Source of the DNA: an uncultured Planctomycetales bacterium
GTDB taxonomy: Bacteria > Omnitrophota > Gorgyraeia > Gygaellales > Profunditerraquicolaceae
NCBI GenBank assembly: GCA_964579435.1
Contig: CAZOGI010000001.1
Span: 157,907-221,906, forward strand
Reading direction: 5' to 3'
Length of the DNA stretch: 64,000 bases
In this document: piece by piece, positions 10,204 to 64,000 of the stretch
How positions within the stretch are numbered: position 1 is the first letter of the stretch
Layout of the letters: each line of letters starts with the position of its first letter
The notes under the pieces: generated by a model
What the model was told of the DNA's origin: nothing
Seen by the model: only the letters and a program-made list of their open reading frames with translations
Database searches by the model: none
Translations under genes and position numbers: made by a program

Positions 10204-10520
10204 TTAACCACGCTGCCGACGGCGACCTTCTTTTCCGGAGTCACGATAACCGGACCGCTCTCACCCGATGCAGCCAGGAGCATCCCCTGGCTTTCGACAC
10301 CTCGCAGCATCGCGGGCTCCAAATTGTCGACCAGCACGACCTGCCTGCCGATCAGGGAGTCCTTGTCATAGGCGTTGCGGATCCCCGCAACGACCTGTTT
10401 GCTGCGGCCGCCGACGTCCAACGTTATAACGTAAAGCCGGTCTGCGTTCGGATGCTCAGTGACCGCGGTAATCTCGGCAATACGCAGCTCAAGCTTTTTA
10501 AAATCATCGATCGTGATCAT
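10200..10520 (-). CDS. tRNA-binding protein (CsaA/Trbp111-like EMAP/OB-fold domain; MetG C-terminal-like)
   Basis: LRIAEITAVTEHPNADRLYVITLDVGG...QVVAGIRNAY, 106 aa. GGAGGGGGT sits upstream of the ATG. Confidence 0.65.
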   Translation of the reverse strand: MITIDDFKKLELRIAEITAVTEHPNADRLYVITLDVGGRSKQVVAGIRNAYDKDSLIGRQVVLVDNLEPAMLRGVESQGMLLAASGESGPVIVTPEKKVAVGSVVK

Positions 10521-10544
10521 ACCCCCTCCGGTGCCCCGCTGCCG

Positions 10545-12068
10545 TTAGAACGTCCATTCCAAAGACAACTCTACCTGGTAAGCCGCATCCGCCTTTGCGT
10601 CTCCCCGCACGAAAGGGGTCAAAAGGCTCCCGTCGACGTCATCGCGCCGCTCCCGGTAAAAATTCCCGGGGATAAAGTAACCGGCAAGCAGGCTTACCAG
10701 GGCGCGTTCGTTCATTTGATAATCGAGCGTCACATCCACTTCATAGCCCAGCTCTGCCGAGAGCGCGCGCGGCTCCCCTTCCCACATGCCGACCCCCCGG
10801 GCAAAACAACGAAGATAGTATCCCTGCACCGTCACCAACACCGCATCGGTGAGGGATACCTCACAGCCCAGAGAAGGCATCAGCAGATTATCGTAATCAG
10901 ACGCCCCGAAGGTCCCGGGACGGGGAACCCCGTAATTGAGACCCCACCCGCTGCCCATTGCCACCAGCGGCTTGGCATCGCAGCTCTCCTGGCCGATGGA
11001 GTCGCCCTGGGCCTGATTGAGCGACGAGAAGACGCTGAACGCCCGGTTTTTGCCGCGGGAGAGTGTCGCATCTTGCGCCAACACTTCCTCCTCGGTAACG
11101 GCGTTGCCGGAACAGACGAGGAATTCCCCGAACGGGACGACCCGTTCTTTCCCGTAGGCTACCCTGCCGTATACCAGATATCCCTGATGCTGAATATCCT
11201 TAAAGGAGGGGTCGCCGCTTTGGGCAACCCCGAAATTGCGGGCGCACTCCGCCTTGAACGCAAAAGGCGCAGCCTCATAGGTCAGGGCAAACCCTGCGGT
11301 GCCGAGGATATCGTGCTTTACCGGCGCGCCCCAGAGCGAATCGCGTTTGCCGGCCGCAGTATAATCGCTTAGTACCCCGCAGTACGGCTGCAGCCACAGC
11401 CGCTCCCTGCGCCAGGAGAGATCAGCTGCCCAGAAGTTGATCGCCCCCGGATGGTAATCAATCCCTTGCTCCTCGTCCTGACGGATACGCGCACCGAGAT
11501 GGTTTTTCAGGTGCGCGTCCGGCCGGCAGTAGTAGAGGTGCCAGGAGAACGGCTCCGCCTCGCGGTACAATTTCACGCCGATGTTCTCATAACTGCCGTT
11601 GAGGCTCATCCCCAGTCCGACGACATAGCTCGTCAGGCCGGCCTGGACCCGGAAACGGTCCCGCCAGGGCACATCCACCCACAACTCCTCCAACTGCGGG
11701 AGAAGCTCATCGTCACGGTACGCCTCGATGCGGCCGCCCGACGTCAAAAGAGCATTGCTTACCCACAGCGGCGCCGAATAATCGAACGGCCCGTTGCGTT
11801 CTATCTTCAGATATGCCCGCAGGCCATCGTCTTTGTGCGTATACCCCAACCCCAGGCTGTAATCAAACCCGATCGACGCGCTGCGGTCATCGGTGTTGCG
11901 ATGATCGAGGTCCACCGTATTCTCGAAAGTCACCGCATCCGTGCGTTGATACAGCTGCAGGGTCACCTCGGCCCGGGGCGTATCCATAACCGTCAAAGCC
12001 TGCGCGCCGCCTCCGCCGGCACACAGCACCCCCGCCAGACCAAAAACAAGAAAAACTGCCCGCCGCAT
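10545..12068 (-). CDS. Putative outer-membrane beta-barrel protein (alginate-export/porin-like)
   Basis: Signal peptide MRRAVFLVFGLAGVLCAGGGGAQA. Alternating aromatic/Gly beta-strand pattern. C-terminal ...LEWTF aromatic terminus. Confidence 0.4.
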   Translation of the reverse strand: MRRAVFLVFGLAGVLCAGGGGAQALTVMDTPRAEVTLQLYQRTDAVTFENTVDLDHRNTDDRSASIGFDYSLGLGYTHKDDGLRAYLKIERNGPFDYSAPLWVSNALLTSGGRIEAYRDDELLPQLEELWVDVPWRDRFRVQAGLTSYVVGLGMSLNGSYENIGVKLYREAEPFSWHLYYCRPDAHLKNHLGARIRQDEEQGIDYHPGAINFWAADLSWRRERLWLQPYCGVLSDYTAAGKRDSLWGAPVKHDILGTAGFALTYEAAPFAFKAECARNFGVAQSGDPSFKDIQHQGYLVYGRVAYGKERVVPFGEFLVCSGNAVTEEEVLAQDATLSRGKNRAFSVFSSLNQAQGDSIGQESCDAKPLVAMGSGWGLNYGVPRPGTFGASDYDNLLMPSLGCEVSLTDAVLVTVQGYYLRCFARGVGMWEGEPRALSAELGYEVDVTLDYQMNERALVSLLAGYFIPGNFYRERRDDVDGSLLTPFVRGDAKADAAYQVELSLEWTF

Positions 12069-25824: not shown

Positions 25825-26406
25825 TTACGCCCAGATGACGCGGTTCACCCTGACGTCTCTGGCGGTGGTAGGGACAGAAGGAAGGATTTGAAAATCGTAA
25901 GCCAGGCCCACGGTCGGTGTATCCTGCGGCAGTCGGGACAAAAAAGAGTCGTAACATCCCCTGCCGCGCCCCAACCGGTTGCCGCGACGATCAAAGGCAA
26001 TGCCCGGCACGATCACTAAGTCTATATCGCGCATGCGTAAGAAGCGCTTGGCGCGGGGCTCGGGTATTCCGTAGAGCCCTTTATGCAGCCGCGCCGTCTC
26101 ATGAAAGACACACGGCCAGACCAGGTGCGGCGTGCGCGCAACCGGGACCGCAACCCGTTTTCCCCGCAGAAACGCTTCCCGTATCATGCTCCTTGTGTCC
26201 ACTTCGCCACCGAAAGAGAGGTAAAACATCACCGTTTTTGCTTTTCTAAACGCTGTTGTCCTGAACAGCTTACCTTTTATAGTACAACTCTTTTTGGTTC
26301 GCTCTTCCTCCTTCTGAGTTTTTAACAGCGCTATAATTCTACTACGCAGAGCCTGTTTTGTCAATGCTCTCCCCGGACAGGCGGCCGGAAACAATGTCTT
26401 TTTCAT
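25825..26406 (-). CDS. 5-formyltetrahydrofolate cyclo-ligase
   Basis: GRGRGCYD motif. Internal ATG (MKKTLFPAA...) at 26406. 193 aa. Confidence 0.7.
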   Translation of the reverse strand: MKKTLFPAACPGRALTKQALRSRIIALLKTQKEEERTKKSCTIKGKLFRTTAFRKAKTVMFYLSFGGEVDTRSMIREAFLRGKRVAVPVARTPHLVWPCVFHETARLHKGLYGIPEPRAKRFLRMRDIDLVIVPGIAFDRRGNRLGRGRGCYDSFLSRLPQDTPTVGLAYDFQILPSVPTTARDVRVNRVIWA

Positions 26407-26422: not shown

Positions 26423-27109
26423 TCAAGCGCTTGGGCGGGGCGCCGCTGATGCTGCGGCGCCGGCAAGATTCTTCCGGTGCGGTCGCCGCGCAACCGCATG
26501 GTCTTTCGGCGCACGAATCGCCCGGAAACGATCGAGCTTCTGTTGCCGCTGGGCCTCTTGATAAATGAGCACCCAGGCACAGTCCTGTTCTTTATCCACC
26601 TCGCACTTGCCTTTATTCATCCCCCCGCAAGGCCCGTTCAGGAGCCCCTTGGGGCAAAGGGTGACGGGACAGATCCCGCCGGTCTGCGCGAGAACGCAGG
26701 CTCCGCACAGGGAGCATTTTTCGAGGAAATTCCCCGCGGCATCGACGGTTGCCCCGAAAACGGTATCGCACCCGGGCAGTGTCGGGGCGCTGGTGCGCGC
26801 ATTGTCTTTGACCGACTGTACCCCGAGCCCGCAGGCCAGCACCAGAAGCGCCTCGGCCTGGCGCACCTGCCCCGCGGCGCGCGCCAACTCCGCTTTCACC
26901 TGGGCTGCCACGCAGGGCGCCTTGGGGATGCGCCAGCCGACCACCGTCTTTCCCGCTTTTTCAAGCTGTTCCTTCAGGAGGCGCACCGCTGCCTCGTCGC
27001 CGGTTTTACACGTGGTGGCGCACTCGCCGCACCCGACGATGAATACCCGGTCGAGACCGCGCAGCGATTCTTCAATTGCGCCAAAGGGTTGAGCGGTGGT
27101 TATTATCAT
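26423..27109 (-). CDS. Methylenetetrahydrofolate reductase C-terminal-domain-like protein (MTHFR_C, MetV-like), stand-alone
   Basis: CPKGLLNGPCGG plus the CGEC, CSLCGAC Cys pattern characteristic of MTHFR_C proteins. Confidence 0.55.
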   Translation of the reverse strand: MIITTAQPFGAIEESLRGLDRVFIVGCGECATTCKTGDEAAVRLLKEQLEKAGKTVVGWRIPKAPCVAAQVKAELARAAGQVRQAEALLVLACGLGVQSVKDNARTSAPTLPGCDTVFGATVDAAGNFLEKCSLCGACVLAQTGGICPVTLCPKGLLNGPCGGMNKGKCEVDKEQDCAWVLIYQEAQRQQKLDRFRAIRAPKDHAVARRPHRKNLAGAAASAAPRPSA

Positions 27110-27421
27110 GGGGGGGTCTTATCCGTAGGGGCATTGTAACACTTTTACCGGGGGGCGACAAGCAAAAACCGGGCAAAAAAAATCCCCGCCTGTGCCGTTG
27201 TAGCCTGGTGGGCTGTGAACCTTCCGGTTACACGTGGGTGCCCGCTCCGCAGGCACGCATGCGCCGCGGAAGAGAGGCTCCCTTTTTTTTGGTGTTGGCT
27301 CACCAATCACCAGGCTCTTGAACGAACACTGCAGGGACTCTTTTCTGCTGCACCTTTGAGTATACCACGGGGGCCCGCCTCTGTCAAACCCGCGCTCTCC
27401 CGAACACAAAGGCGCGCCGCA

Positions 27422-43273: not shown

Positions 43274-43501
43274 TTATTTTGCCGGCTTGTCAAGTTTTTT
43301 GTCTGCTGCCGGAACTACGCTTACCCTTACCTTGGCTGGCTTTGCCCCCGCCATACCAAATAGCCCTCTTTCTTCCTCGCTAAGCACTTCTATCTTCACT
43401 TGCTTACGCGGGACCTTGAGCGCAACCAGGGCTTTATTAATAGCGTCCTCGAGATTTTTACCCTCAACCTCGATACTTTGAAATTCTTTATGCGGGGACA
43501 T
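43274..43501 (-). CDS. Jag/KhpB N-terminal-domain-only protein (Jag_N, no KH or R3H domains)
   Basis: Internal ATG gives MSPHKEFQSIEVEGKNLEDAINKALVALKVPRKQVKIEVLSEEERGLFGMAGAKPAKVRV, which matches the Jag_N pattern (GKTVEEAI..AL..LGV...V.VEVL.E...GFLG). Sits in the canonical jag position after yidC. Confidence 0.5.
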   Translation of the reverse strand: MSPHKEFQSIEVEGKNLEDAINKALVALKVPRKQVKIEVLSEEERGLFGMAGAKPAKVRVSVVPAADKKLDKPAK

Positions 43502-45023
43502 TCTTGTACACTCTCGCTTGATAAATAAGCATGAGAAGGCTATTCGTGATCCAGTACAAAACAAGTCCGGAGGGAACGCGGTAAAACGCCATTCCAAAAA
43601 TTATCGGCATTAAGAAAAGCATCATCTTCTGCTGTTCATTGGCTCCAGCGGTTTTACTCATGGATATCTTCTGTTGAAAGAACATCGCAAGAGCCATGAG
43701 GATTGGTAATAAATTAATTTCGTTGCCTAAAAGCGGGAGGTGATTGGGCAAAAGCGCAATCCGGTCAGGCTCGGAAAGATCCTTAATCCAGAAAAACTCC
43801 GCACCTTTTAACGCAATAGAGCGAGGAAGCAGTTGAAGGAAGGCAACAAAAACGGGCATTTGCAATAACAGCGGCAAGCAGCCGCCCAAGGGATTGACTT
43901 TATGCTCCCGAAATAACTTCATTTGTTCTTGCTGAAATTTCTGGGGATTATCCTTATACAACTTCCTTAACTCTTCGAGTCGAGGTTGAATCATTTGCAT
44001 CTCTTTCATCGACTTTGTTTGCTTTATGGTCAATGGAAATAGCGCTATAAAAATTGTGCATGAAACGCCAATGATGGCCCATCCCCAGTTATTGAATAAC
44101 CTGTGGAAAAACTCAAGCAATTGAAGCAAAATTTGTGATATAAAATCAAAGGTTCCAAAATGAATAATCGACGCATACTCGGGATCAGCTTCTGAAAGCA
44201 GCTTTATAATCTGTGGGCCGGCAAATAATTTCAAATTTAACGCCTTCTTTTCTCCTGGTTTTAGCTCCATCAACGACTGCGGACTAAACGTCACCACAGA
44301 AACATTTTTATCCGGACGCGAGATTGATCCGTTAATTTTTACTGAATCATCAGATTGGACAATTAAAGCATAATATCTTGTTTTGAAAGCAATGAAGTCA
44401 ACATCTTTAAAGTCTGCCTTCTTTGAAGGAGCATAGGTAGTTGTATTATTTTTTTCCCTACTCACCACAACACTACTATATTGTAAATCGCTTGCCCCCT
44501 GCTTCAAATCAAAACTTCCCAGAACAACTGGAAAATTTACCGTACGAACATTACTTCCAATATTCTCAACTTCAAATTTAAGATTTCCTTGAACACTATT
44601 CTTAAAAGATAGAATCCTTTTAATTCTAAATTCTCTATCTTCACTAACCGAAATAATGGAATTATTAATTAAATTAGATTCACTAATAATAAAATTATTA
44701 TTAAACCCAACTATTTCTAAGGCATTAAATAACAACATGTTACCACCACCAAAAACTTTTCCAAACTTCAACTCAAACAATGACCCGGTTAAGCCATTAA
44801 ATACCGCCTTAAAATGTCCAAAGTTAAATTCCTTTTTGGACATTTCTTTAACATTTTGCAGATCGTTCTTTTTTATTTCTGGCGGGAGGATTTCTTTTGA
44901 AGACAGCGGCTCTTGTTCAGATCGCAGAAGGAGCGGGGACGGCTGTTGCTTTGGCAAAACGGACGACCAAATAAACAATACCACCGCTGACAAGAAAATA
45001 GCCAAAATCAGTCTTTTTTCCAT
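43488..45023 (-). CDS. yidC: Membrane protein insertase YidC
   Basis: N-terminal TM, large periplasmic domain and C-terminal five-TM core (MPIIFGMAFYRVPSGLVLYWITNSLL). The periplasmic-domain coding region is extremely AT-rich (about 25-35% GC). Confidence 0.85.
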   Translation of the reverse strand: MEKRLILAIFLSAVVLFIWSSVLPKQQPSPLLLRSEQEPLSSKEILPPEIKKNDLQNVKEMSKKEFNFGHFKAVFNGLTGSLFELKFGKVFGGGNMLLFNALEIVGFNNNFIISESNLINNSIISVSEDREFRIKRILSFKNSVQGNLKFEVENIGSNVRTVNFPVVLGSFDLKQGASDLQYSSVVVSREKNNTTTYAPSKKADFKDVDFIAFKTRYYALIVQSDDSVKINGSISRPDKNVSVVTFSPQSLMELKPGEKKALNLKLFAGPQIIKLLSEADPEYASIIHFGTFDFISQILLQLLEFFHRLFNNWGWAIIGVSCTIFIALFPLTIKQTKSMKEMQMIQPRLEELRKLYKDNPQKFQQEQMKLFREHKVNPLGGCLPLLLQMPVFVAFLQLLPRSIALKGAEFFWIKDLSEPDRIALLPNHLPLLGNEINLLPILMALAMFFQQKISMSKTAGANEQQKMMLFLMPIIFGMAFYRVPSGLVLYWITNSLLMLIYQARVYKNVPA

Positions 45024-45419: not shown

Positions 45420-45688
45420 TCCGTCGAATTGGGATAAATTATAACACATTGTTATCTCAAGTCAACACTAAATGTTTCGACTCTAGAAAAATCTGCAAAG
45501 CAAAACCCCGATGGGATTTTCTCGGGCGGCGCAAAACACAGAAGGGACTGTCGTTTCAATTTTATGTTGACTTCCCGAAAAGGGGCTGTATAATAATCAA
45601 ACGATTTTAAAATACCTGTCCTTTTTAGCCTGACAAAATCTTTCCACAGAGTTATTCAGTTTGTTGATAAACTGTGGATTCTGTGCAC
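45420..45688. other. Putative oriC segment with dnaA promoter region: AT-rich stretch with degenerate DnaA boxes
   Basis: AT-rich 45425-45500 (gggataaattataacacattgttatctcaagtcaacactaaatg). Near-consensus DnaA boxes (TTATCCACA/TGTGGATAA): ttgttgataa (1 mismatch), tgtggattc, ctttccaca, tgggataaa, ttatctcaa. TATAAT at about 45590. The gene strand switch occurs here. Confidence 0.45.
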
Positions 45689-47038: not shown

Positions 47039-47185
47039 TTGCAGGGGGTATACACAGTCCTTTTTTGTGGTAACTTTTTTAATAGGTGTGAGATCGGAGG
47101 TTTTAAACAGGAATGTAACCGCATTACTATAATACGATTACTATTTTTTTAAAATTACTTATTAATAGTAGAAAAGGAGTGGTTG

Positions 47186-48277
47186 ATGAAAATTAAGGCG
47201 AACAAAGAACAATTACTAACCGGAATTCAAACGGTATTAAATGTCATCAGTCCAAAATCTGCTTTACCAATTCTTTCTAATATACTCTTGGAGACGCAAA
47301 CCGATACACTGCGTTTAACCGCCACAGATCTTGATATTGGTATAAGCTGTGAAATAGCGGTGAATAACCAGGAGTCAGGGTCAATAACCGTTCCGGCCAA
47401 GCGATTTTATGAAATTATCCGGGAGTTGCCTGCGGATGAGGCAGTTATTACCTCGAAAAAGAATAATCAGGTCCATATAGAAACGACGACCTGTCAATTT
47501 AAAATTATGGGCCTGGCGCGGGAAGAATTCCCCCGACTCCCGGAATTTAAAGACCGCAATGTTGTTTCTTTGGATCAGGATTTAATGAAACACATGCTTC
47601 ACCTGACCGCTTTTGCCGTATCAAACGATGAGTCGCGGTATATCCTCAATGGGATCTTGGTGCAACTTTCAAAAAACACCGTGAGTATGGTGGCAACCGA
47701 CGGAAAGCGGCTGGCGGTGATTGAGCAAAAGACAAAGAAGGGGAGCGAAAAACCCATTTCTTTTATCGTTCCCAGCAAAACCATTCAGGAGCTCAACCGT
47801 AATTTGGGTGACACCGGGGAGGTATCGTTTATTTTGGGGAACAACCAGGTGCTGTTCGACCTGGGCAAGGTGATCATTATTTCCCGCCTCATAGAAGGGG
47901 AATTCCCCGATTATAAACAGGTTATGCCGCCGGCATCGGAGCAGAAGATTAAGGTGGATCGCGAGGCGCTTCTCTTGGCGGTACGCCGCGCGGCGCTCTT
48001 GTCGACGGTCGATTACCAGGCGGTGAAGTGGGAGGTGTTCAAGAATAAACTGGTTATTTCCAAGTCGACCCCGGATATCGGGGAGTCGCGGGAAGAGTTG
48101 GCCGTCGACTATGCCGGGAAGGAGATGATCATCGGTTTTAATCCGAATTATCTGACCGATGTTTTGAAGAATCTGCAGCATCAACTCGTCGAATTCGAGG
48201 TGACGGACAGCGAAAAACCGGGCGTGGTGCGGACCGACGGGTATACGTATATCGTTCTACCGATGCGTCTCGGATAG
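47186..48277 (+). CDS. dnaN: DNA polymerase III beta sliding clamp
   Basis: MKIKANKEQLL...; three-domain clamp length. AGGAG at -9. The ATG at 47186 follows the track's TTG. Confidence 0.9.
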   Translation: MKIKANKEQLLTGIQTVLNVISPKSALPILSNILLETQTDTLRLTATDLDIGISCEIAVNNQESGSITVPAKRFYEIIRELPADEAVITSKKNNQVHIETTTCQFKIMGLAREEFPRLPEFKDRNVVSLDQDLMKHMLHLTAFAVSNDESRYILNGILVQLSKNTVSMVATDGKRLAVIEQKTKKGSEKPISFIVPSKTIQELNRNLGDTGEVSFILGNNQVLFDLGKVIIISRLIEGEFPDYKQVMPPASEQKIKVDREALLLAVRRAALLSTVDYQAVKWEVFKNKLVISKSTPDIGESREELAVDYAGKEMIIGFNPNYLTDVLKNLQHQLVEFEVTDSEKPGVVRTDGYTYIVLPMRLG

Positions 48278-48285
48278 GGCGTCGC

Positions 48286-51025
<2,740 letters not shown>

Positions 51026-53590: not shown

Positions 53591-55429
53591 GTGTGCGGAA
53601 TAATCGGATATAGCGGGAAACGCCCTGCTCAGCCGATACTCCTCAGCGGGCTGAAGCGGCTTGAATACCGCGGGTACGATTCAAGCGGCATGGCGCTGGT
53701 GACGCCGCTGCCGGCGCCGCACATCTGCATGCGCAAGGCCGCAGGTAAAATCGCCGCACTGGAAGAGGCGCTGCACAAAAAACCGCTCCACGGCACCGCC
53801 GGGATAGCCCACACCCGCTGGGCAACCCACGGTGCGCCGACGTACGCCAACGCCCATCCCCACGCCGATTGTTCCGGATCCCTCGCCCTGGTCCATAACG
53901 GCATCATCGAGAATCACGAAGAGCTGAAGGCGCGCCTGATCAAGGCCGGGCACCGTTTCACCAGCCAGACCGATACGGAAGTGATCGCGCATCTCATCGA
54001 ATCGTTCTACGCTCCCCGGGTCTGCCTCGCCGAGGCGGTACGCAAGGCAAGCCTGCTTTTGCACGGGTCGTTTGCCCTGGGGGTTATCTCGGCGCGCGAG
54101 CCCGGGGTTATCGTCGGGATGCGTGCGGGCAGTCCGTTGATCGTCGGCGTCGGCAAGGGGGAGAATTTTATCGCCTCCGACGTGCCGGCGGTGTTAGAGG
54201 CGACGCGGGAGATTATTTTTCTGGAAGAGAACGAATCGGTGGTCTTGACGGCTCAGGAGATCCGCATCTGCGAGCGCACGGGCAAACCGCTGCGTAAGCG
54301 CACGACCCGGATCGACTGGAACAGCGCGCAGGCCCAGAAGGGCGGGTACCGCCATTTCATGCTCAAGGAGATAAACGAGCAGCCCCGGATCCTTTCCGAT
54401 CTCATTCGCCTGCATTGCGCAAAACGCGGCGTTGTCTTTGAGCGGCTCAATATCGCCGAGTCGCGCTTGCGCTCGATCCGCTCAATTGCCATCGTTGCCT
54501 GCGGCACGGCGTATCATGCGGGTGTCGTCGGGAAGTATGCCCTCGAGTCGCTCTGTCGGCTGCCGACGGCGGTCGATGTATCGAGCGAGTTCCGCTATCG
54601 AACGCTCCTGATTGGCCCGCAGACACTCGTCCTGGCGGTCTCCCAGTCGGGAGAAACGGCTGATACGCTGGCGGGGGTCAGGGAGGCCAAGCGGCTCGGG
54701 GCGCCGGTTGTCGCCATCTGTAACGTCCTGGGCTCGACCCTGACGCGCGAAGCCGACGGGGTAATTTATACTCACGCCGGCCCCGAGATCGGCGTCGCAT
54801 CGACGAAGGCCTATACCGCTCAGCTTGTCGCGTTTTATCTGTTCACGCTCTACCTGGCGCACCTGCGCGGCGGCATGCGCGCTTCCCGGATGGCGCTGCT
54901 TTTGCAGAAGCTCCGGCAGATACCGGAGCTGCAGCGGCACATCCTTAAGGATCAGGAGCGCATCGCCCGCCTGGCGCGCAGCCATTCGCACTTCGGGTCA
55001 TTCCTTTTCCTGGGGCGCAACATCAATTTCCCCTCTGCCCTCGAGGGCGCCCTGAAGCTTAAGGAGATATCCTACATCCCCGCGGAAGGGTATGCGGCCG
55101 GGGAGATGAAGCACGGGCCGATCGCGCTGATTGACGAATACCGTGCCGTTGTCTGCATTGCCCCCGCAGCAGAAACGTACGAAAAGATGATCTCCAATAT
55201 CCAGGAAATTCGCAGCCGTAAAGGCAAGATCATTGCCATTGCCACTGCCCGCGACACGGCGATCACCGCCCTTACCGAGGAGATCATTTCCCTCCCCGCA
55301 ACCGAAGAGCTTTTTTCGCCGCTGCTGGTGGCGCTTCCGCTGCAGCTGTTGGCGTACCATATCGCCGTGAAGCGCGGCTGCGATGTCGACCAGCCGCGTA
55401 ATCTTGCCAAGTCAGTTACCGTCGAATAA
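53591..55429 (+). CDS. glmS: Glutamine--fructose-6-phosphate aminotransferase
   Basis: GTG start directly followed by the catalytic Cys (MCGIIGY). Two SIS domains. C-terminal ...AKSVTVE. Confidence 0.9.
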   Translation: MCGIIGYSGKRPAQPILLSGLKRLEYRGYDSSGMALVTPLPAPHICMRKAAGKIAALEEALHKKPLHGTAGIAHTRWATHGAPTYANAHPHADCSGSLALVHNGIIENHEELKARLIKAGHRFTSQTDTEVIAHLIESFYAPRVCLAEAVRKASLLLHGSFALGVISAREPGVIVGMRAGSPLIVGVGKGENFIASDVPAVLEATREIIFLEENESVVLTAQEIRICERTGKPLRKRTTRIDWNSAQAQKGGYRHFMLKEINEQPRILSDLIRLHCAKRGVVFERLNIAESRLRSIRSIAIVACGTAYHAGVVGKYALESLCRLPTAVDVSSEFRYRTLLIGPQTLVLAVSQSGETADTLAGVREAKRLGAPVVAICNVLGSTLTREADGVIYTHAGPEIGVASTKAYTAQLVAFYLFTLYLAHLRGGMRASRMALLLQKLRQIPELQRHILKDQERIARLARSHSHFGSFLFLGRNINFPSALEGALKLKEISYIPAEGYAAGEMKHGPIALIDEYRAVVCIAPAAETYEKMISNIQEIRSRKGKIIAIATARDTAITALTEEIISLPATEELFSPLLVALPLQLLAYHIAVKRGCDVDQPRNLAKSVTVE

Positions 55430-55440
55430 GGCCCGTCGAG

Positions 55441-56097
55441 ATGCTGTATATCGTCTCCACCCCCATAGGCAACCTGAAGGATCTTTCCCTGCGCGCGCAG
55501 TCGGTTTTGCGAGCGGTGTTCCTGATCGCCTGTGAGGATACCCGCCACAGCCGGATCCTGCTGGAGGAATACGGTATCACGACGCCGACGACGAGTTATT
55601 TTCAGCACAACCGTTTCTCCAAGGGCGCGTATCTGCTGGATCTCTTAAAAGGGGGGAAGGATATCGCCCTGATCGCAGACGCCGGTACCCCGGGGATTCT
55701 CGATCCCGGATACCATCTGATCAATCTGGCGATCGACGCAGGCATTCCGGTAACGGCGATCCCCGGGCCGGTGGCATTGATCTGCGCGCTCGTGCTCTCC
55801 GGAAAACCGGCGCACCGTTTCTTGTTTGAAGGGTTCCTGCCGGTCAAGCAGGCAGCGCGGCGCAACCGGCTGATCGCGCTCAAAGGCATGGATACCACCA
55901 TCGTCTGTTACGAATCCTGCCACCGGATCCTCAAGACCCTCGATGACCTGGCGGCGGTATTTCCCGACCGCACGCTCGTCCTCTGCCGCGAGCTCACCAA
56001 GAAGTTCGAGGAAGTGCTGCGCGCAAAACCGCAGGAACTTTCCCGCCTCCTTCGGGAACGGCCGCGCCCCAAGGGAGAGTTTGTTCTGGTCATTTAA
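55441..56097 (+). CDS. rsmI: 16S rRNA (cytidine1402-2'-O)-methyltransferase
   Basis: MLYIVSTPIGNLKDLSLRA..CEDTRHS...TPGISDPG-like tetrapyrrole-methylase fold motifs. 218 aa (short form). Confidence 0.8.
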   Translation: MLYIVSTPIGNLKDLSLRAQSVLRAVFLIACEDTRHSRILLEEYGITTPTTSYFQHNRFSKGAYLLDLLKGGKDIALIADAGTPGILDPGYHLINLAIDAGIPVTAIPGPVALICALVLSGKPAHRFLFEGFLPVKQAARRNRLIALKGMDTTIVCYESCHRILKTLDDLAAVFPDRTLVLCRELTKKFEEVLRAKPQELSRLLRERPRPKGEFVLVI

Positions 56098-56290
56098 GCG
56101 CCAGAAACCGTTTTCGTTTTGCCGCCGTCGAGCCCTTGCATTTGCGCCTTCCCCGAGATACATTTTAAGTGCCATTTATACGGGTTGTTTTAGACAATGA
56201 TTCCTTCCGGCGTGGAGGGCGCCGGAGGGGGAGCCGGTTTGTGCCGGATCTGCCTTATGCAAAGGGTCAGGTCCGGCTTTCTTTTTGCCT

Positions 56291-59200
56291 ATGCACACGA
56301 CCAGCGTGAAAAAGACAGCAACGTTCATCCTCGCAGGTATCCTGCTCTTTGCGCACTCCCTTGGTCCGCGCGCGCTCGAAGCGGCTGCTCTGTCTCCTGT
56401 GAGCGCCGAAACTGCCTGGTTGCCTCCAGGGAATGCCAGCGCCTCTTTGCGGGGACTTTCGTATGAGCAAGGGCAAAACTGCTTCCGTCTCCTGTTCGAG
56501 CGCGCCGCGATCGCGGGCATCGGCCCCGCTGAACTGGATTCCCTGACACGCCGGTTTCTGAATTATTTTTTCATCGCCCTGGCGCTTCCCGAAGAGTCGT
56601 TCTGGGTGAATCTGCGGCCGGATAAACCCGACGGCATTATCGATCCCGCGCTTGCGCAGACAGCGGTCGGCGCCATTCTCCTGGAGACCGACCTGTTGCT
56701 TAAACAGGATACTGCCCGCGCCACCGCGCCGGATACGGCATCGGGGAGGCTGTATTGGGAAAAGCTCTATCGCAAGGCGCAGGAGTTGTATGGTTCGGCG
56801 CAGGTCAGTATCCCCACGCTGTGCCGCCCTTGGATCGTGCCGGAGGAGATCGTCATGCGCATGACGGCGGGCAACGCGTACGTGTACAAGGCGACTTTGA
56901 AGGTGATGCTGGAGGAGGATTATATACAAGACACAAGTCACCTGTCACCAGACACCGGTGTGATGAGGCAGTATGCGTTCGCGGATGAGCGGGCGAAAGA
57001 GTTGAATGAGTACGCCGCACAACTGATGCGCGAACTGGTCGTGCCGGAGCTGACGCGCAAGGTGAACAACGGACGGGAGTACGCCGCCCTGCGGCAGGTC
57101 TATCAGGCGCTGATTCTGGCGCAGTGGTTCAAGCGGACGGTCCGTTCTGGCGGCGCGTTCGCGCCGCTGGTCAACGGCGGGGCCCCTTCGTCGTTGCGGC
57201 TGCGGTCGCCGCCGGATGTGCGCGGGTACTTCCGTGCGTACCAGCGGCTCGTCCGGCAGGGTGCGTATGATATGCGGGCCGGCGGTTATGCCGGGGGGGA
57301 GCGAGTGGCGCGCCGCTATTTTTCCGGGGGCATTGTCCTGCGCGCCGGACCCGCGATCGACGCGGGAGGCTTTTCCGGCACCAGCGCAACTTTTCCTCCC
57401 GCAGGAACCGCCGCCTTGACCGTCGAAGTGGAAGCGAGTATGTCCGCGCGGGAGGTCGGGCAACCGCAACGCATCGTTGCCGCTGTTGTCCAGCCGCAGG
57501 CCGATGCGGGGATAGCCAGCGACCACCATGCCGGCACGACGCGCGCGCAGCACCTGGCATTTCATCGCGGCGGAGATTTTGCCACGGTTTTGCGCTGGAT
57601 CGCACAAGAAGATCTGGGTCTGGTTGCCGGCAGCGACGGGTGGTTCGATCTGCGCCGGCGGTTACAGGAGGAGCCCCAGAGGCGCCTCGTTTTTGACGGT
57701 CTTGATCGGCGCGGGCAGAAACGGCATACCGAGCTGCGCCTGGAATCTGACGGCGCGCTGGTAGTGGTAGACAGCCGCCTGCGCAAGGACCATGCCGGGA
57801 GAGGCCAATTTGCAGTCTATGCGCGCAACGAAGGCAAGGTGGTGCATGAGCTCTCGGAGCTGCGGTCATGGGCGGCATATGCCCGGGATGAGCTGGGGAT
57901 CATCACTGCTGCCGAGATCAGGGACGGGAAGCTGGGGATACGGCTGCGCCGCTGGATGAACGGACTGGGCGAAGACGAAGCACGGGATTTTTCCGTCGGG
58001 TCGTTTGAGATCAGCCGCAGACAAAAGCGGATCCGGGAAAAAGCCGATACGTTCCATCGCGACGCGCTTATCGAAGAGTTCGTCTTTTGGGCAAAACGGC
58101 AGAGATTACTGGGCACGGCCCAGACGGCATGGGAGCAGCTCCAAGAGGTCTGCGCGCAGGCGGGCACGCGGCCGCAGGAGCTGTTCCGCAGGTACCGCGC
58201 GCAGGAAGGGGTTTTCGAAATCTCGCCCCTCATGCAGGCGCTCTTAACACAGACGGACTTGGCGAAGTACAACTTTTTCGGCCTCCTTTTTGTCACCCGC
58301 CAAAATCTGCTGTCGCCGCTTGCGGTGCGCATCGCCGCGAAAATGAGCACCTATCCTTTGGTCTATGATCCCGACGGGCTCATCGATATTGAGGTGCGCC
58401 TCGTGGAGTATCTGCGCGCGGCTTTGGCGGCAAACCAGGAGCTGTTGGGGCCAGAGGGGGTGCGGGAGTGTCTTGCCACCGCCGCTCCCGTGCTGAGCGG
58501 ATTCTATCCGCACATGCATCAGCATCCGCTGGCTTGGGTAAGCCGGTATACCCAGGCCGAAATGCGTATCCGCGTGCTGCTGGCGGTGCGTTCTCTTGAG
58601 GATCTGATTACGGACGGGCGGCTTCCCGAGGAGCTGATCGCTTATCTGCAGGAGATCGGCTCGCTTGATCCGCTCATCGCCTTGGCCGACGAAAAGCTCC
58701 TCGCCGATTTTGGGATGTCCCTCCCGGTCCGCATGCGCGCGTTGCGTCAGGAGTATCCGGATTTCGTGCGGCGGTACCGGCAGCGGCAGGCGCTGCTTCC
58801 GGAGCCGGAAGAGGCAGAGGAGGAATTTGATTTCATCATCGCTTCCTCTGGAGGCGCGCCGGAGGGGGAAGCCGCAGCATCAGCCGCTGCGCTGCGCAGC
58901 ATCCTTGCGCCGCATCTGCTGGTGCCCGTTGACCTGGAGTTGGTCCTGCAGGCTGTCGAGCGCTCTCCTCGCCGAGAGGCTGCGCTTCAGGCGGTCACCG
59001 TTCTGTGCCGGGAGTTCGTGCGCAATAAGGTTACCCCGATAGACAGCGCGTTGCTCTTGCGCAGCTGCGCCAAATCTTCCTCGTTGAGCGAGGCGGCGCG
59101 GCTCTTTGCCCAGCACCAGCGGTACCTGCGCGTACTGCGGCTGGACCCGCAGCAGCAGCCGGCGATCGTGCGCGCGATCGCCCTTTCGGCGCAACCGGCC

Positions 59201-61489
59201 GAAGCGGCCCGGCGCGCACTGGGGTTTATGGCCGGCAACGCCGGATGGCTGCGCGAGCACAGTCGTCAGCTGCCCTTTGAAACGGTCCGCCTCCTGTTTT
59301 CGGGGACGCTGCAGGAACCGCTTCCGGCATTCGTTTGCGCGACCGCGCCGGTCGGCCATTTGGCGGAGCGCGGCGCACTGGCGGTGCAGCTCAATACCCT
59401 GCCCCGCGCCGTTACGGAATACATCATCGCCTATCTGCAAACCGTCCCGCCGGAAAAACAGTTTTCCTCTGTGCGCGGAATTAAAGAGATGGTGCGCAAC
59501 GGCGGCATGCTTCCCGAGGATACCCTGCAGGACTGGGAGCTGCTCTTGAACCGCTATATTGCGGATTTCGCCTTCCTTGCCTGCCGGCCGCTGATCCTCC
59601 TGCAGCGGCGGCTCTTTCGCGCCGAAGCCTTGCCCGAAGATGGGCTGCTCTCGATCGCTGCGACGGGAGAGGAGGGGGTTGCCCTCCTGGCCGCCCGGGT
59701 TGCGGCGATTAAAGAGGAGCTGTTCCTGCGCAGACAGATCCGCGAGCAGGACCTGCGACATCCGGCTTTTAAGGCGCTTGTTGCCTGGATAACCGGGTTT
59801 TCCAGCGCCAGTTGGGGCCACGGTAAGAACGAAGGGATGGAGTTGGATTATTTCCTTGAGCGGTTCAGGGCCACCGCGGCTCCTCCCCTTGATGCCGCGT
59901 TAACACAGGCGCCGCCTTCGTCTTTCAGCGTCCGCCCGGAAAGGATCGAGTTTACCGAGGATGAACGGCAGATGTATTCCCGCTATCAGCGTATTTTCTC
60001 TCGGGCGCTCTTGTTGTACCATCAGGCCGGATCCGCCGAAGCGACTCTTATCGTTCTGAAAGAGGAGGCGCGCAAAGAGCTCCTGCGGGCAACACGGGAG
60101 CTTGAGCGCTCACGCAAAGAGAGAGGGGCCGGCGCCGTTCTGGAGCATCTGGCCCGCCGGCAGCGGGCCTTCGAGCGCGCGCAGGCTGGCGTCGCCGCGG
60201 CCGCGACCCTCGAATCGTTCTGCTGGGAGATCGTCTCCGGCGTGCCCGAGGTTCTGGAGCACAGTCCGCTCCTGCAGGAACAGGTGATCGTCGCGCTCCT
60301 GCAGGAGGCTTTCCGTCAGGATCCCGCAGCCCTGGAGCGCATTGCCGAGATCGAGCAGGAAGAGCTCAGTATGCGTTCGCTTGACAAGATCCTTGCCTTC
60401 AAAAACGACTATTTCAATAAGATCGAACCGCCCAACTCGATCTTAAACGAACGGCCGCCCCAGGAGGCCAAGCAGATACTGCGGGTCTTTCGCGTGTCGA
60501 TTTTCGAACAGGTGTATGCGCGCACCAAAACCGTCTCACCGCCCGAAGAGGAGCCGTTGGTGCTGCGCGGATTTCTCACCCGGGATATCCTGGGTGAGCT
60601 GGCCGGGGACATCGGCGACGCCTGCTATACGGCGTTGCCGCACATCATGAATTACCCGGCGATGGTCGGAGCGCTCATCTTCACGACCGGGCAAGGGCTG
60701 GATGCGCGTTTTGCCGGGTCGGTCCTTGTCCTGAAGAATTCCGTTGCGGGAAAGCCGGTGTGGATCCTGCGCGGCATCAATCCGCAGGAAGATGTCGTCG
60801 CCGATTACAGCGCCGCGGATTTCCTGGACGGGGTTCTGCGCACCTGCGTGGAGCTGGCGCAGGCGTATAATGCCGCCCGCCCGCCGCAGGAGCAGGTACA
60901 CCGGATCCTGACCCCGGCTCTCGACGAAGGAGCTCTCAGCAATCAGCGCAAGATCAATTCCGTCGTCAAACAGCGGATTGGGCGCAGCCGGGCAGTTATT
61001 CTCGACCACAAAGAGACGTTTAATTTTCACGACATCACCGCTGCCTGTAAAGAATTGGCGACGATCGTCCCTGCTGCCCCGGAGGCGCGTGCGCAGGTCC
61101 CGGGGCCGCTCGTTGCGCAGTCGATTGCCTCATCCCCCGCGCCGGCGCCTCAAGGGCCTGAGACGCAGGTGGGGGGGATAGATCTTCGTTCATTGCCGAT
61201 GTTATCTGAGACGGGCTGGACGGCTGCGCCTGTTCCGGGGCGGGGAGGCGTAGATCTGGAACAGGAGTGGCGGCGTCTGCACCACCTGCTTTCTGCGGGG
61301 ATCGCGCCCTCCGCGCGCAGGATAGCGGATTGTGCCGCCGCCTGCAGCCGCAGCCCGGCGTTTCGCCAGGAATTCAGAGAGCGTCTTCTCGGCTGTATCA
61401 GTCAGACCTTGCTCATCCAGGAGCGGCGCGGGTGCGCTACCGAACCGCTCCTGCAGCGGGCGCTGATCCTTCTGGACAACGCCGAGTGA
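56291..61489 (+). CDS. Giant (about 1730 aa) signal-peptide protein of unknown function, mostly alpha-helical (Ala/Leu/Arg/Glu-rich); paralog A
   Basis: A single uninterrupted ORF. The ATG at 56291 (MHTTSVKKTATFILAGILLFAHSLGPRALEAAA) follows the track's TTG and gives a signal-peptide-like N-terminus. I recognise no catalytic motif. The N-terminal 250 aa are homologous to the next gene. Confidence 0.6.
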   Translation: MHTTSVKKTATFILAGILLFAHSLGPRALEAAALSPVSAETAWLPPGNASASLRGLSYEQGQNCFRLLFERAAIAGIGPAELDSLTRRFLNYFFIALALPEESFWVNLRPDKPDGIIDPALAQTAVGAILLETDLLLKQDTARATAPDTASGRLYWEKLYRKAQELYGSAQVSIPTLCRPWIVPEEIVMRMTAGNAYVYKATLKVMLEEDYIQDTSHLSPDTGVMRQYAFADERAKELNEYAAQLMRELVVPELTRKVNNGREYAALRQVYQALILAQWFKRTVRSGGAFAPLVNGGAPSSLRLRSPPDVRGYFRAYQRLVRQGAYDMRAGGYAGGERVARRYFSGGIVLRAGPAIDAGGFSGTSATFPPAGTAALTVEVEASMSAREVGQPQRIVAAVVQPQADAGIASDHHAGTTRAQHLAFHRGGDFATVLRWIAQEDLGLVAGSDGWFDLRRRLQEEPQRRLVFDGLDRRGQKRHTELRLESDGALVVVDSRLRKDHAGRGQFAVYARNEGKVVHELSELRSWAAYARDELGIITAAEIRDGKLGIRLRRWMNGLGEDEARDFSVGSFEISRRQKRIREKADTFHRDALIEEFVFWAKRQRLLGTAQTAWEQLQEVCAQAGTRPQELFRRYRAQEGVFEISPLMQALLTQTDLAKYNFFGLLFVTRQNLLSPLAVRIAAKMSTYPLVYDPDGLIDIEVRLVEYLRAALAANQELLGPEGVRECLATAAPVLSGFYPHMHQHPLAWVSRYTQAEMRIRVLLAVRSLEDLITDGRLPEELIAYLQEIGSLDPLIALADEKLLADFGMSLPVRMRALRQEYPDFVRRYRQRQALLPEPEEAEEEFDFIIASSGGAPEGEAAASAAALRSILAPHLLVPVDLELVLQAVERSPRREAALQAVTVLCREFVRNKVTPIDSALLLRSCAKSSSLSEAARLFAQHQRYLRVLRLDPQQQPAIVRAIALSAQPAEAARRALGFMAGNAGWLREHSRQLPFETVRLLFSGTLQEPLPAFVCATAPVGHLAERGALAVQLNTLPRAVTEYIIAYLQTVPPEKQFSSVRGIKEMVRNGGMLPEDTLQDWELLLNRYIADFAFLACRPLILLQRRLFRAEALPEDGLLSIAATGEEGVALLAARVAAIKEELFLRRQIREQDLRHPAFKALVAWITGFSSASWGHGKNEGMELDYFLERFRATAAPPLDAALTQAPPSSFSVRPERIEFTEDERQMYSRYQRIFSRALLLYHQAGSAEATLIVLKEEARKELLRATRELERSRKERGAGAVLEHLARRQRAFERAQAGVAAAATLESFCWEIVSGVPEVLEHSPLLQEQVIVALLQEAFRQDPAALERIAEIEQEELSMRSLDKILAFKNDYFNKIEPPNSILNERPPQEAKQILRVFRVSIFEQVYARTKTVSPPEEEPLVLRGFLTRDILGELAGDIGDACYTALPHIMNYPAMVGALIFTTGQGLDARFAGSVLVLKNSVAGKPVWILRGINPQEDVVADYSAADFLDGVLRTCVELAQAYNAARPPQEQVHRILTPALDEGALSNQRKINSVVKQRIGRSRAVILDHKETFNFHDITAACKELATIVPAAPEARAQVPGPLVAQSIASSPAPAPQGPETQVGGIDLRSLPMLSETGWTAAPVPGRGGVDLEQEWRRLHHLLSAGIAPSARRIADCAAACSRSPAFRQEFRERLLGCISQTLLIQERRGCATEPLLQRALILLDNAE

Positions 61490-61645
61490 GCCTGCTTTGG
61501 AGCAAGCGCTTTCCGTAAAACCCGCCCCGCGTCTTGTATCACTTCTCCCAACGGCTATATTTATTATTGGCTGATAACCACCTTTTTCCGGAACGCTGCG
61601 CCTGCGCTGATTTGGTACGGCTGTTTCGGGATACGTCCTTTCCTT

Positions 61646-64000
61646 ATGGCTCGAAAAGCAATCTGTCTAGGGCTCTGCTGTATCCTGCTCCTGCAGCAAT
61701 CCGGGTTTACGCAAGCTGTGGCGCCGGCAAAGGCACCGGTGTTGCCGTTGCCGTCGAGCGCCTCGGGGGAACGGTTCAGGCCTGCGCACCTGCGGTCTCT
61801 GGGCTATGATGAGCGCCAAACGCACCTGGAGCTTATCGTTGACCGGGGAGATCAGAAACAGCCGGGCTCATCCGAAGCAACAGAAACGACCCGCCGCCTT
61901 CTTTCATTTTTCCTCATCGGCATCAGCCTGCCCGAGAGATCCTTCTGGGTGAACCTGCGTCCCGATACCCCGCAAGAGATCATTGATCCGCTTCTGGCCC
62001 AGACCGACGTCGGCAAGATCATGCTGGAGGCGGACCTGCAGCTCAAAAAAGATACGGCAGCCGCGACCTCTCCACAGACCCCGGGGGGGAAGGCGTATTG
62101 GGATAAACTGTACCGCAGGGCAGAAGAGCTTTTCGGCGGCAGCCGGATGTCCTTTCCCACTCTCTCTCGGCCCTGGATTGTCCCGGGGGAGATCATTGTG
62201 CGCGAGACTTCCCGGAACGCATACGTCTATAAAGCGACGCTGAAGGTGATGCTGGAGGAGGATTATATACGAGACACAAGTCACCTGTCACCGGACACCA
62301 GTGTGATGAGGCAGTATGCGTTCGCGGATGAGCGGCTCAGGCAGCTCAATGCCTACGCCGCGCAGCTGATGCGCGAGCTGATTATTCCGGAGCTGACGCG
62401 CAAAGTCAATACCGAGCGTTCGTATGCCCCGCTTCGCCAGGTGTATTATGCGCTGATCCTGGCGCAATGGTTTAAGCGGCGCTTCCGCGGCGCCGGCGGC
62501 CTTTACGCGGAAAGGATCGACAGCGCCGATCTGCTCGGTTTGCGCTCAGCGCAGACTGCCGACGTTCAGGAGTACTATAGGCGGTATCAACAATCGTTCC
62601 GGGACGGGGAATATCGTTTGCAGGCCCCTGCCTATTCGCTGTCCGGAAAAAGCGTGCGCCACTATTTTTCCGGGGGCATTCAGCCGCTCCCGTCCCAACT
62701 GCCGGCGCCCGGAAAATCCGAAACGCTTCCGGGCGGGGGGCTTTATTCCTCGGTTGATGCCAGCGCCCACAGGCGCTTGCCGCAGGACCCTGATCGCGGC
62801 CTGCGTTTTAGCGTCGGGGTGAGTCAAGCGCTGGCTCCTGTTCCGGGCCTGGAGCCGTCGGTTCCCGCAGCGGTCCCCGGGGCGCTGCTTGTCACCGCCG
62901 GGAGCACATACGCCCCAACGGCTTCTCCTCAAGAGAATGCGGAGGCGCTTGTGCGGCTGTTCCTGGGGATCGGTGCCGGCGAGGACCTCGCCGCAGCCCT
63001 CGAAGCGCAGTTTAAGGCCGATCCCACCGAGCTCCTCAACGCCGCGCGTGAAATGCAAGCGGCGCGCGCACTGCCATCTCTTTTTCAGGGCCGCAGGCAT
63101 TTCATCTCTTCGTTCTTTGCGGAAAACGACGCCGCAGGTGCCGCGGGCAAAGAGGTGCTGCAGGCGGCCGCCGAACGCCTTTTTGTTTTTCTTGTCGAAC
63201 ACATAGCCCAAGAAGATCATCAGCCGCCGGCTCCCGAAGCATCCCCAGAGGCGCTGATCCGCGCCGGCAACAAGGTGGTTCTTGAAGACGGAAGCAGCGT
63301 CCTCATAACCCACGCGATCAGCGTCGGCGAATCTCGCCCCGGGGAGCAGTCGCAAGACGGTCGCACTACGCGGCCTCAGGCGCACGCCTTCGGCGCCGAA
63401 GGCGTTTTTTACGGTCTCTACGTGCGCGACCGCGGCACCCGAACGATTTATCTGGATCGCGCCGGCCTTGCCGAACGCTTGCAGGATCCGCACCAGCGAC
63501 GGGCTTTTGCCCGCGTCCTGGGAAGGGAGTCATTCAGCATCGAAGATGCGGCGCGTTTCCTTGACGGACACGAGACGTTCCATGCCCTGGTTGATGAACT
63601 GCGTCTGCGGGAAGAGTTGCCCGAGATGAGCCAGGAGCAGGAGGAGGCATTGGCGGACCTGTTCGGCAGGGATTTTGCTTTCGGCGAGGTGACGCTGGAT
63701 ATTCGCCTGCAATCCTTGCTGACGAAGATGAGCAGGCTGCTGCGGGTGGATGTCGCGCGGGTGCTGCGCAAGAGAGGAACGATCGAAGAGGCGCTCGGCT
63801 ATCTGGGCATCTTTGTTTCCCTGGAGTGGTCGGTCTCCGGCAGCGAGCTTGCCCGCCTTGCCCGGGCGCCTGCGCCGGCGGGAGAGCGGCTGGTACGGCC
63901 TTTCCTGGTGACCGAGCGTACGGCCCTGACCCCTACGCCTAACCGCCGCGATAACGCTTTTGAAGACATGATCGCCCGCTCCAGCTCGCGTTCGCGCGCG
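61646..64000 (+). CDS. Partial CDS (runs off the window end): second large signal-peptide protein; paralog B of 56291-61489
   Basis: Own translation from ATG at 61646 (MARKAICLGLCCILLLQQSGFTQAVAPAKAP...) remains open for 785 codons to the window end. Shares the conserved domain ...FWVNLRPD..IIDP.LAQT..G.I.LE.DL.LK.DTA.AT.P.T..G..YW.KLYR.A.EL.G......PTL.RPWIVP.EI......NAYVYKATLKVMLEEDYI.DTSHLSPDT.VMRQYAFADER... with paralog A. Not in the ORF track because there is no stop within the window. Confidence 0.55.
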   Translation, partial: MARKAICLGLCCILLLQQSGFTQAVAPAKAPVLPLPSSASGERFRPAHLRSLGYDERQTHLELIVDRGDQKQPGSSEATETTRRLLSFFLIGISLPERSFWVNLRPDTPQEIIDPLLAQTDVGKIMLEADLQLKKDTAAATSPQTPGGKAYWDKLYRRAEELFGGSRMSFPTLSRPWIVPGEIIVRETSRNAYVYKATLKVMLEEDYIRDTSHLSPDTSVMRQYAFADERLRQLNAYAAQLMRELIIPELTRKVNTERSYAPLRQVYYALILAQWFKRRFRGAGGLYAERIDSADLLGLRSAQTADVQEYYRRYQQSFRDGEYRLQAPAYSLSGKSVRHYFSGGIQPLPSQLPAPGKSETLPGGGLYSSVDASAHRRLPQDPDRGLRFSVGVSQALAPVPGLEPSVPAAVPGALLVTAGSTYAPTASPQENAEALVRLFLGIGAGEDLAAALEAQFKADPTELLNAAREMQAARALPSLFQGRRHFISSFFAENDAAGAAGKEVLQAAAERLFVFLVEHIAQEDHQPPAPEASPEALIRAGNKVVLEDGSSVLITHAISVGESRPGEQSQDGRTTRPQAHAFGAEGVFYGLYVRDRGTRTIYLDRAGLAERLQDPHQRRAFARVLGRESFSIEDAARFLDGHETFHALVDELRLREELPEMSQEQEEALADLFGRDFAFGEVTLDIRLQSLLTKMSRLLRVDVARVLRKRGTIEEALGYLGIFVSLEWSVSGSELARLARAPAPAGERLVRPFLVTERTALTPTPNRRDNAFEDMIARSSSRSRA

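Follow-up and report, generated by a model that had tools for sequence, protein, structure and literature searches.

Two tandem paralogs share a near-identical 95-nt block

The 64,000-nt stretch of DNA analysed here (contig CAZOGI010000001.1 of an uncultured bacterium assigned to the Omnitrophota; referred to as the window) ends with two tandem open reading frames (ORFs), paralogs A and B, which share a block of 95 nt that is nearly identical at the nucleotide level and that we attribute, with good confidence, to a recent gene conversion. Paralog A (56285–61489, plus strand) is a 1,734-codon ORF with a likely ATG start at 56291; its layout comprises a signal peptide, a conserved N-terminal domain (N-domain, residues ~85–350), a variable middle part and a conserved C-terminal domain (61160–61486, plus strand, residues ~1626–1734), which contains GGIDLRSLP... 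and is common to most members of the family. Paralog B (61646–64000, plus strand) starts with MARKAICL... and runs past the end of the window. The homology between A and B is confined to the N-terminal ~350 residues, with an amino acid identity of 53–55%, and the two N-domains (56537–57334 and 61889–62680) lie in direct orientation.

The block spans positions 56898–56992 in A (codons 205/206–236, LKVMLEEDYIQDTSHLSPDTGVMRQYAFADER) and 62241–62335 in B (LKVMLEEDYIRDTSHLSPDTSVMRQYAFADER), on the plus strand in both cases. Its two copies are alike at 92 of 95 bases, the differences being three transitions (56928 A/G, 56950 A/G and 56957 G/A, in the order A/B), and they are located, with a start-to-start distance of 5,343 nt, in frame at homologous codons of the two co-oriented ORFs. 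A previous sequence-only reading of the window had reported such a block, with three A/G transitions, inside diverged paralogs; direct reading of the sequence confirms it, except that the interval then given, 56899–56993, extends one base too far at its 3′ end, a trivial difference: at base 56993, one copy has G and the other has C. The edges of the block are sharp, identity being lost within one or two codons on either side: the codons at the left edge read GCG/GCA, GTG/GTC, TAC/TAT, AAG/AAA, ACT/ACG and TTG/CTG in A/B, and those at the right edge GCG/CTC, AAA/AGG, GAG/CAG and TTG/CTC. No third copy of the domain, or of the block searched with up to three mismatches, was found in the 64 kb; none of the block was found in viral contigs, and Tandem Repeats Finder detected no tandem repeat within it. 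The antisense pseudo-ORFs that overlie the block are by-products of it, as had been proposed.

The paralogs have a second short stretch in common (57310–57334 versus 62656–62680, plus strand, 24 of 25 nt), which encodes the motif R[RH]YFSGGI. Its surroundings are only 35% identical, the stretch alone is not significant, and an unrelated pair (L016) likewise has its best segment at this motif; the stretch probably reflects a conserved motif plus chance.

Silent divergence collapses within the block

In a codon alignment of the N-domains, A and B are 66.7% identical over 798 nt (73% across 597 nt according to blastn), and this identity is very unevenly distributed. When the alignment is scanned with a 30-codon window, identity reaches 97% on the block and ranges from 43 to 80% elsewhere. 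The contrast is most telling at silent positions: among the degenerate codons that specify the same amino acid in both paralogs, 26 of 27 are identical in the block, versus 50% outside (binomial P = 1.7e-7). The synonymous divergence (dS, Nei–Gojobori) is 0.053 in the block, which contains one synonymous and two non-synonymous changes. By comparison, the proportion of synonymous differences (pS) is 0.75, i.e. saturated, in the left flank (106 codons), and the right flank displays a pS of 0.58–0.64 and a dS of 1.1–1.4 (0.58 and ~1.1, respectively, for 54 codons). The observed nucleotide segment score was never attained when the codon columns were permuted (0/20,000, p ≤ 5e-5), and permutation restricted to silent codons reached it in 21 of 100,000 trials (p ~2e-4). 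By a GENECONV-type criterion, the divergence of the block, silent sites included, is thus significantly lower than that of its flanks. The codon alignment and the dS values (0.05 versus more than 1 or saturated) thereby substantiate what the sequence-only reading had judged by eye, namely that the flanks are far more divergent, synonymous sites included. That reading had also recognized that many more blocks of this kind would speak against its proposal; A and B share no other comparable block, the next-longest identical runs being 19 and 17 nt.

The tract carries a lineage-specific loop insertion

The block covers the conserved motif KVMLE[EQ]DY, a hypervariable loop and then the conserved pattern Y-x-F-x-D-x-R. 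The loop segment corresponds to positions 56924–56971 in A (plus strand, codons 214–229, I-QDTSHLSPDTGVMRQ) and 62267–62314 in B. The 15-residue loop, QDTSHLSPDTGVMRQ in A and RDTSHLSPDTSVMRQ in B, is found in A and B only: in 157 homologues, the loop is five residues long (e.g. KD-SAT) in 112 cases and contains insertions of 10–39 residues in the other 45, these insertions being unrelated to one another and none of them resembling the A/B loop. The A/B loop is therefore a lineage-specific insertion of ~10 codons beyond the common five-residue loop. Because the block spans the hypervariable loop of the family, in a version shared by A and B only, constraint at the protein level cannot explain its identity.

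The codons of the loop (ATA, ACA, AGT, TCA, CCA, GGT, AGG) are atypical for a genome with 60% G+C, and its codon adaptation is the second lowest of the 1,718 16-codon windows of gene A; this composition suggests that the insertion is relatively young and un-ameliorated. In the structural model of the domain, the predicted confidence is lowest, within the modelled core, at residues 211–234, as expected of an exposed loop.

Several features of the loop DNA can be mentioned in their own right. Positions 56930–56964 display a rough 7-nt periodicity (GACACAA GTCACCT GTCACCA GACACCG), seen by eye and too weak to score. Copy A holds a 10-bp palindrome, ACACCGGTGT, and two of the three substitutions exchange CCAG...CCGG (A) for CCGG...CCAG (B). 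Family members from other genomes carry, in frame and in this very loop, copies of a palindromic repeat (GTCATTGCGAG...GAAGCAATC...GATTGCTTCG...CTCGCAATGAC, translated as ...SLRGAAGDEAIS...ARNDA) that is dispersed and also present outside the genes of the family. Copies of this repeat lie at 5286–5384, 10646–10729 and 9884–9938 in locus L107, at 1704–1739 in L015, 6113–6147 in L076, 5668–5702 in L045, 6218–6253 in L089 and 831–864 in L142. Judging from these sequences, the family loop is a landing site for elements resembling miniature inverted-repeat transposable elements (MITEs).

A and B belong to a family of secreted proteins of the Omnitrophota

Proteins A and B have no match in Pfam, NCBIfam or the PDB sequences, no protein identical to the product of A is on record, and the 43-residue block peptide has no match in the protein index. 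Homologues of the N-domain, with 40–55% identity, number in the hundreds and come nearly all from metagenome-assembled genomes of Candidatus Omnitrophota: we counted at least 244 proteins, 432 loci in GTDB species representatives and at least 524 confirmed loci in JGI metagenomes. No orthologue of A or B was found in the GTDB genomes and JGI metagenomes, where the best relatives among the matches listed are at most 51% identical. Family members consist of a signal peptide, an N-domain of ~270 residues, a non-homologous middle part of variable length and a C-terminal domain of ~110 residues. The invariant motifs of the N-domain (FWVNLRPD, RPWIVP, YKATLKV, LRQVY..LI...WFK and YFSGG) are all present in both A and B. 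Using the C-terminus of A as a tblastn query, we located the C-terminal domain in over 35 loci, where it lies 3–7 kb downstream of the N-domain. This domain, for which Pfam has no model, follows the pattern GGIDxRxLP ... LRxEE ... L+DIL and ends most members (e.g. at 9498–9824 and 16577–16909 in L107). Tandem membership is frequent, as seen in L016, L096, L104, L107, L113/L158 and the window. We found no paper that ties the Omnitrophota to gene conversion or describes this family.

An AlphaFold 2 model of the N-domain encoded by 56285–57484 consists of a β-hairpin and long helices and has no PDB match above noise. The top Foldseek matches are weak and correspond to α-pore-forming toxins of the ClyA/Nhe/Mak type (E ~0.1–0.3, TM-score ~0.1), which is not evidence of kinship.

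With the block masked, neighbour-joining groups A and B as sisters in 30 of 30 bootstraps, on long branches. Outside the block, the raw identity of B is 67% to its homologue in L126 and 59% to A. The argument that A and B are ancient paralogs since B is nearer to foreign homologues was withdrawn, given that the masked tree joins A and B. A is thus a fast-evolving sister of B, with the caveat that their shared high G+C content could attract both in the tree. The duplication itself is old, because silent sites are saturated, and the block is young.

Mosaic tracts occur in adjacent family members

The 157 domain copies (155 besides A and B) were compared pairwise in a codon alignment. Among the 11,367 pairs with an overall nucleotide identity of 60–75%, none equals the window pair in local identity over 30 codons (0.967, against 0.90 at the 99.9th percentile). 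Over 4,000 inter-genome pairs, silent-codon identity is 0.44 in the columns of the block and 0.43 in the rest of the domain. Since the two values are equivalent, there is no family-wide nucleotide-level element at this position, a possibility that the sequence-only reading had entertained.

Of the eight tandem pairs located within one locus, one other displays an equally strong mosaic. In L107, the copies at 4896–5700 and 10256–11100 share tracts of 122 nt (2 mismatches) and 96 nt (4 mismatches), which flank a loop that is wholly different between the two copies; the observed scores were reached in none of 5,000 permutations at the nucleotide level and in none of 5,000 at silent codons (p < 2e-4), and this pair provides independent evidence of conversion within the family. 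The L104 tandem pair passes the test on nucleotides but fails it on silent codons (p = 0.13), and was not counted as a case of conversion. About 15 pairs from the same genome, 13 of which are split between contigs or separated by tens of kb, have no comparable local peak (one of these pairs was permutation-tested). Tracts are thus seen in adjacent pairs and not in distant pairs of the same genome, the dependence on proximity expected of ectopic conversion. Likewise, exchange between adjacent members recurs at varying positions, which is the behaviour of ectopic conversion rather than that of a fixed functional site.

Probable short-tract gene conversion between A and B

Altogether, the block is, in our assessment, most probably the result of a recent short-tract ectopic (interlocus) gene conversion between tandem, directly oriented and anciently diverged paralogs. 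Recent conversion between A and B had been suggested by the sequence-only reading, and it is supported here by the collapse of silent divergence in a sharply bounded 95-nt tract whose two flanks are saturated. According to this scenario, the N-domains of A and B would have diverged long ago, up to saturation of their silent sites, and ~95 nt of one copy would later have replaced the homologous stretch of the other, in a directional transfer that we infer. The likely pathway would be RecA-type recombination or template switching, for which the codons most conserved in the domain (YKATLKVMLEEDY at the left end, Y.F.D.R at the right end) would have provided the seed. The tract would have brought with it the ~10-codon lineage-specific insertion, placed in an insertion-tolerant surface loop, and the three transitions would have accrued after the conversion, all of them within the loop. 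That the changes (two non-synonymous and one synonymous) are all in the loop is consistent with near-neutral drift. It is possible either that the loop predates the duplication and was re-homogenised, or that it arose in one copy and was then transferred.

Three points weigh against this interpretation: (i) the best relatives in GTDB and JGI are 51% identical, too distant to serve as the orthologues that the classic proof of conversion calls for, in which the tree of the tract joins paralogs and that of the flanks joins orthologues; (ii) the tract nearly coincides with the segment running from about −80 to +14 relative to the start predicted for a strong antisense promoter motif, which leaves room for selection to have favoured or preserved it; and (iii) the block is carried by just two sequences, which precludes covariation or constraint tests within the lineage.

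An antisense promoter-like site is present in both copies of the block

A consensus scan revealed a σ70-type site on the minus strand of each copy. In A (56919–56948), it consists of a −35 hexamer GTGACA (56948–56943), an 18-nt spacer and a −10 hexamer TATAAT (56924–56919); in B (62262–62291), the −35 hexamer lies at 62291–62286 and the −10 hexamer at 62267–62262, again with an 18-nt spacer. Both copies match the consensus at 11 of 12 positions. The predicted minus-strand start would lie at ~56910–56913 in A and at ~62253–62256 in B. The −35 hexamer falls within the lineage-specific insertion, and the −10 hexamer is the antisense of GAT-TAT-A(TA), completed by a rare ATA codon.

Over both strands of the window (128 kb of strand), six sites match the consensus at 11 positions or more, two of them being the block copies. 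Two others, TTGACT-16-TATAAT, lie one per strand at 45438–45465 and 45567–45594 in the AT-rich dnaA spacer; they are divergent, one pointing towards dnaA and the other towards the rpmH/rnpA/yidC side. A further site (27359–27387) is intergenic, upstream of the gene at 26423–27109, and the last one (26336–26364) lies at the start of a 5-FTHF cyclo-ligase gene, in an ambiguous position.

The spacer just mentioned belongs to an origin-proximal part of the chromosome, in which yidC (43488–45023, minus strand), the divergent AT-rich spacer, dnaA (starting at 45674), dnaN (47183–48277), an ORF with a DciA domain, gyrB, gyrA, glmS, rsmI, A and B follow one another. The DciA-domain ORF (48286–48600, plus strand, 104 residues, E = 1e-8) occupies the slot between dnaN and gyrB, the place where recF is often found.

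These sites bring us to the rival explanation that fares best, and which we nevertheless regard as unlikely: the block would hold a functional antisense promoter firing towards the 5′ end of each paralog, whose spread and retention would have been selected, conversion still being the route by which it was copied. By the same unlikely token, such a promoter would yield an antisense RNA or cause transcriptional interference. The quality of the match, with its 18-nt spacer, in both copies speaks for it, as does the company that these sites keep: three of the four other sites are intergenic and upstream of genes, and since the divergent promoters on the dnaA and rpmH sides are among them, the consensus is in use, and the scan specific, in this genome. 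The motif is also rare by chance, being reached in 73 of 200,000 composition-matched shuffles of the block (3.7e-4) and in 1.2% of synonymous recodings of the block peptide. Furthermore, the −35 hexamer is inside the insertion, the tract extends from about −80 to +14 relative to the predicted start, and none of the three A/B substitutions hits a hexamer.

As to the last argument, chance alone would place three substitutions outside the 12 positions in 66% of cases. The motif was found post hoc, after several other motif tests, and its 18-nt spacer and C-rich start region are suboptimal. A promoter constrains ~12–30 positions and so cannot, alone, hold 95 nt of silent sites identical. An antisense match of at least 11/12 is found in none of the other 155 members of the family, the column of the block displaying only weak 9/12 matches, in nine members, and neither an antisense terminator nor a credible antisense gene was detected downstream of the site. 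Spurious promoters are known to arise when AT-rich DNA is inserted into a GC-rich genome, and we treat the motif as a putative passenger of the AT-rich insertion. The regulatory site envisaged in the sequence-only reading may nonetheless have a counterpart in the near-consensus motif present in both copies.

Slightly less probable still is the view of the tract as a portable cis-regulatory module, in which the loop insertion would have created a strong antisense promoter and conversion would have installed it in the neighbouring gene. If so, both tandem genes would now share one mode of control, antisense or by transcriptional interference, and conversion would spread regulation through a multigene family of an uncultivated phylum. 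More generally, an active antisense promoter would make this locus an example of a regulatory sequence spread between paralogs via conversion.

Other explanations for the identity of the two copies

Independent insertion of the same small mobile or palindromic element in the loop of both paralogs is highly improbable. The loop is indeed an insertion hotspot, where L107 and others carry the palindromic repeat GTCATTGCGAG...CTCGCAATGAC, and the codon usage of the loop in the window is strongly atypical. Yet the identical stretch goes beyond the insert, by 27 nt on its left side and 21 nt on its right side, and takes in codons that are conserved in the family; the 16 flanking codons concerned (nine on the left, seven on the right) are all identical, where ~50% would be expected. 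Besides, neither the insert nor its 21-nt core occurs elsewhere in the 64 kb (up to three mismatches) or in viral contigs, and the insert lacks long inverted arms, having just the 10-bp palindrome of copy A. A search for a dispersed repeat of the MITE type or of the Rickettsia palindromic element type returned two homologous copies only in the window, and no significant inverted repeat in the block.

Just as improbable is an assembly or polishing artefact, in which reads of one paralog would have been misplaced into the other. The genome is evidently metagenome-derived, and many homologues lie at contig ends, hence a family that is hard to assemble. However, such an artefact would give identical sequences and would need long shared k-mers at the edges, where just 21–24 nt are shared; the copies differ at three positions, each copy is bordered left and right by divergent flanks of its own, and the reading frame and the family motifs are intact in both. 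As a side observation, the only public contig found to encode an identical rsmI product, a Logan contig from SRR12133403 (L159, 4,516 nt), stops 134 nt past this gene, just before A, which suggests that the multi-copy family breaks short-read assemblies.

Finally, programmed diversification, by a diversity-generating retroelement (DGR) or antigenic-variation cassettes, and a conserved cis-regulatory RNA structure can practically be dismissed: a ~95-nt repeat in a variable region of secreted proteins bears a superficial similarity to the former, but the mismatches are not adenine-specific in one copy (A has A, A and G where B has G, G and A), both copies lie in frame in full-length genes, at positions that are homologous, the 64 kb contains no third copy or silent cassette array, and a scan of 22 ORFs, not exhaustive for small ones, revealed no reverse transcriptase. 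The sequence-only reading had also raised a cassette-shuffling hotspot and an RNA structure. The former is at odds with a tract that is internal to a conserved N-domain and has divergent sequences on both sides; as to the latter, the folding z-scores range from −0.69 to +0.59 (both strands and both copies, with and without 25-nt flanks), and Rfam has no match at E ≤ 1 within 55000–64000.

Significance and comparison with known systems

Taken alone, the A/B tract is a clear, textbook-like example of short-tract conversion, whose use is mainly to call for caution in phylogenies, dS estimates and short-read assembly within this multi-copy family of the Omnitrophota. It also draws attention to an abundant, uncharacterised group of secreted proteins with conserved N- and C-terminal domains, often encoded in tandem, which lacks a Pfam model and matches no PDB fold. 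The loop of these proteins repeatedly takes up insertions, dispersed palindromic repeats among them, and tandem members swap short patches.

Intragenic antisense promoters, spurious or functional, occur in AT-rich segments of bacterial genes. The A/B site resembles them in consisting of a near-consensus −35/−10 pair placed antisense in an AT-richer, codon-atypical segment. It differs from them in that, as judged from the two copies, it would have been duplicated by conversion, and in that its match is as good as those of the dnaA-region promoters.

Rickettsia palindromic elements are in-frame insertions of palindromic repeats. The small dispersed palindromic repeats found in frame in the family loop of L107, L142 and L045 are reminiscent of these elements; the A/B insert, for its part, is not dispersed in the 64 kb, has no long inverted arms and is embedded in an identity that extends beyond it.

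Segmental conversion also underlies antigenic variation, as in Neisseria pilE/pilS, Borrelia vlsE and Anaplasma msp2. As in these systems, a small segment encoding an exposed loop appears to have been copied between related sequences. Unlike them, A and B do not have the layout of an expression site with silent cassettes: they are two full-length genes, with no evidence of high-frequency switching.

The closest parallels are the interlocus conversions between bacterial paralogs, such as tufA/tufB of Salmonella and E. coli, or babA/babB and other outer-membrane-protein paralogs of Helicobacter pylori. The A/B pair has in common with them a short, non-reciprocal, near-identical patch in diverged paralogs, with a local collapse of silent divergence, an exchange aided by proximity and conserved flanking codons, and membership in a multi-copy family whose secreted or surface proteins are conserved at both ends and variable in between. 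It departs from them in that the tract is very short (95 nt) and apparently stems from a single event rather than from ongoing homogenisation, the rest of the domain being saturated, in that the family is uncharacterised and restricted to the Omnitrophota, and in that donor and recipient are not assignable. Viewed as gene conversion, the A/B tract is a new example of a well-known process.

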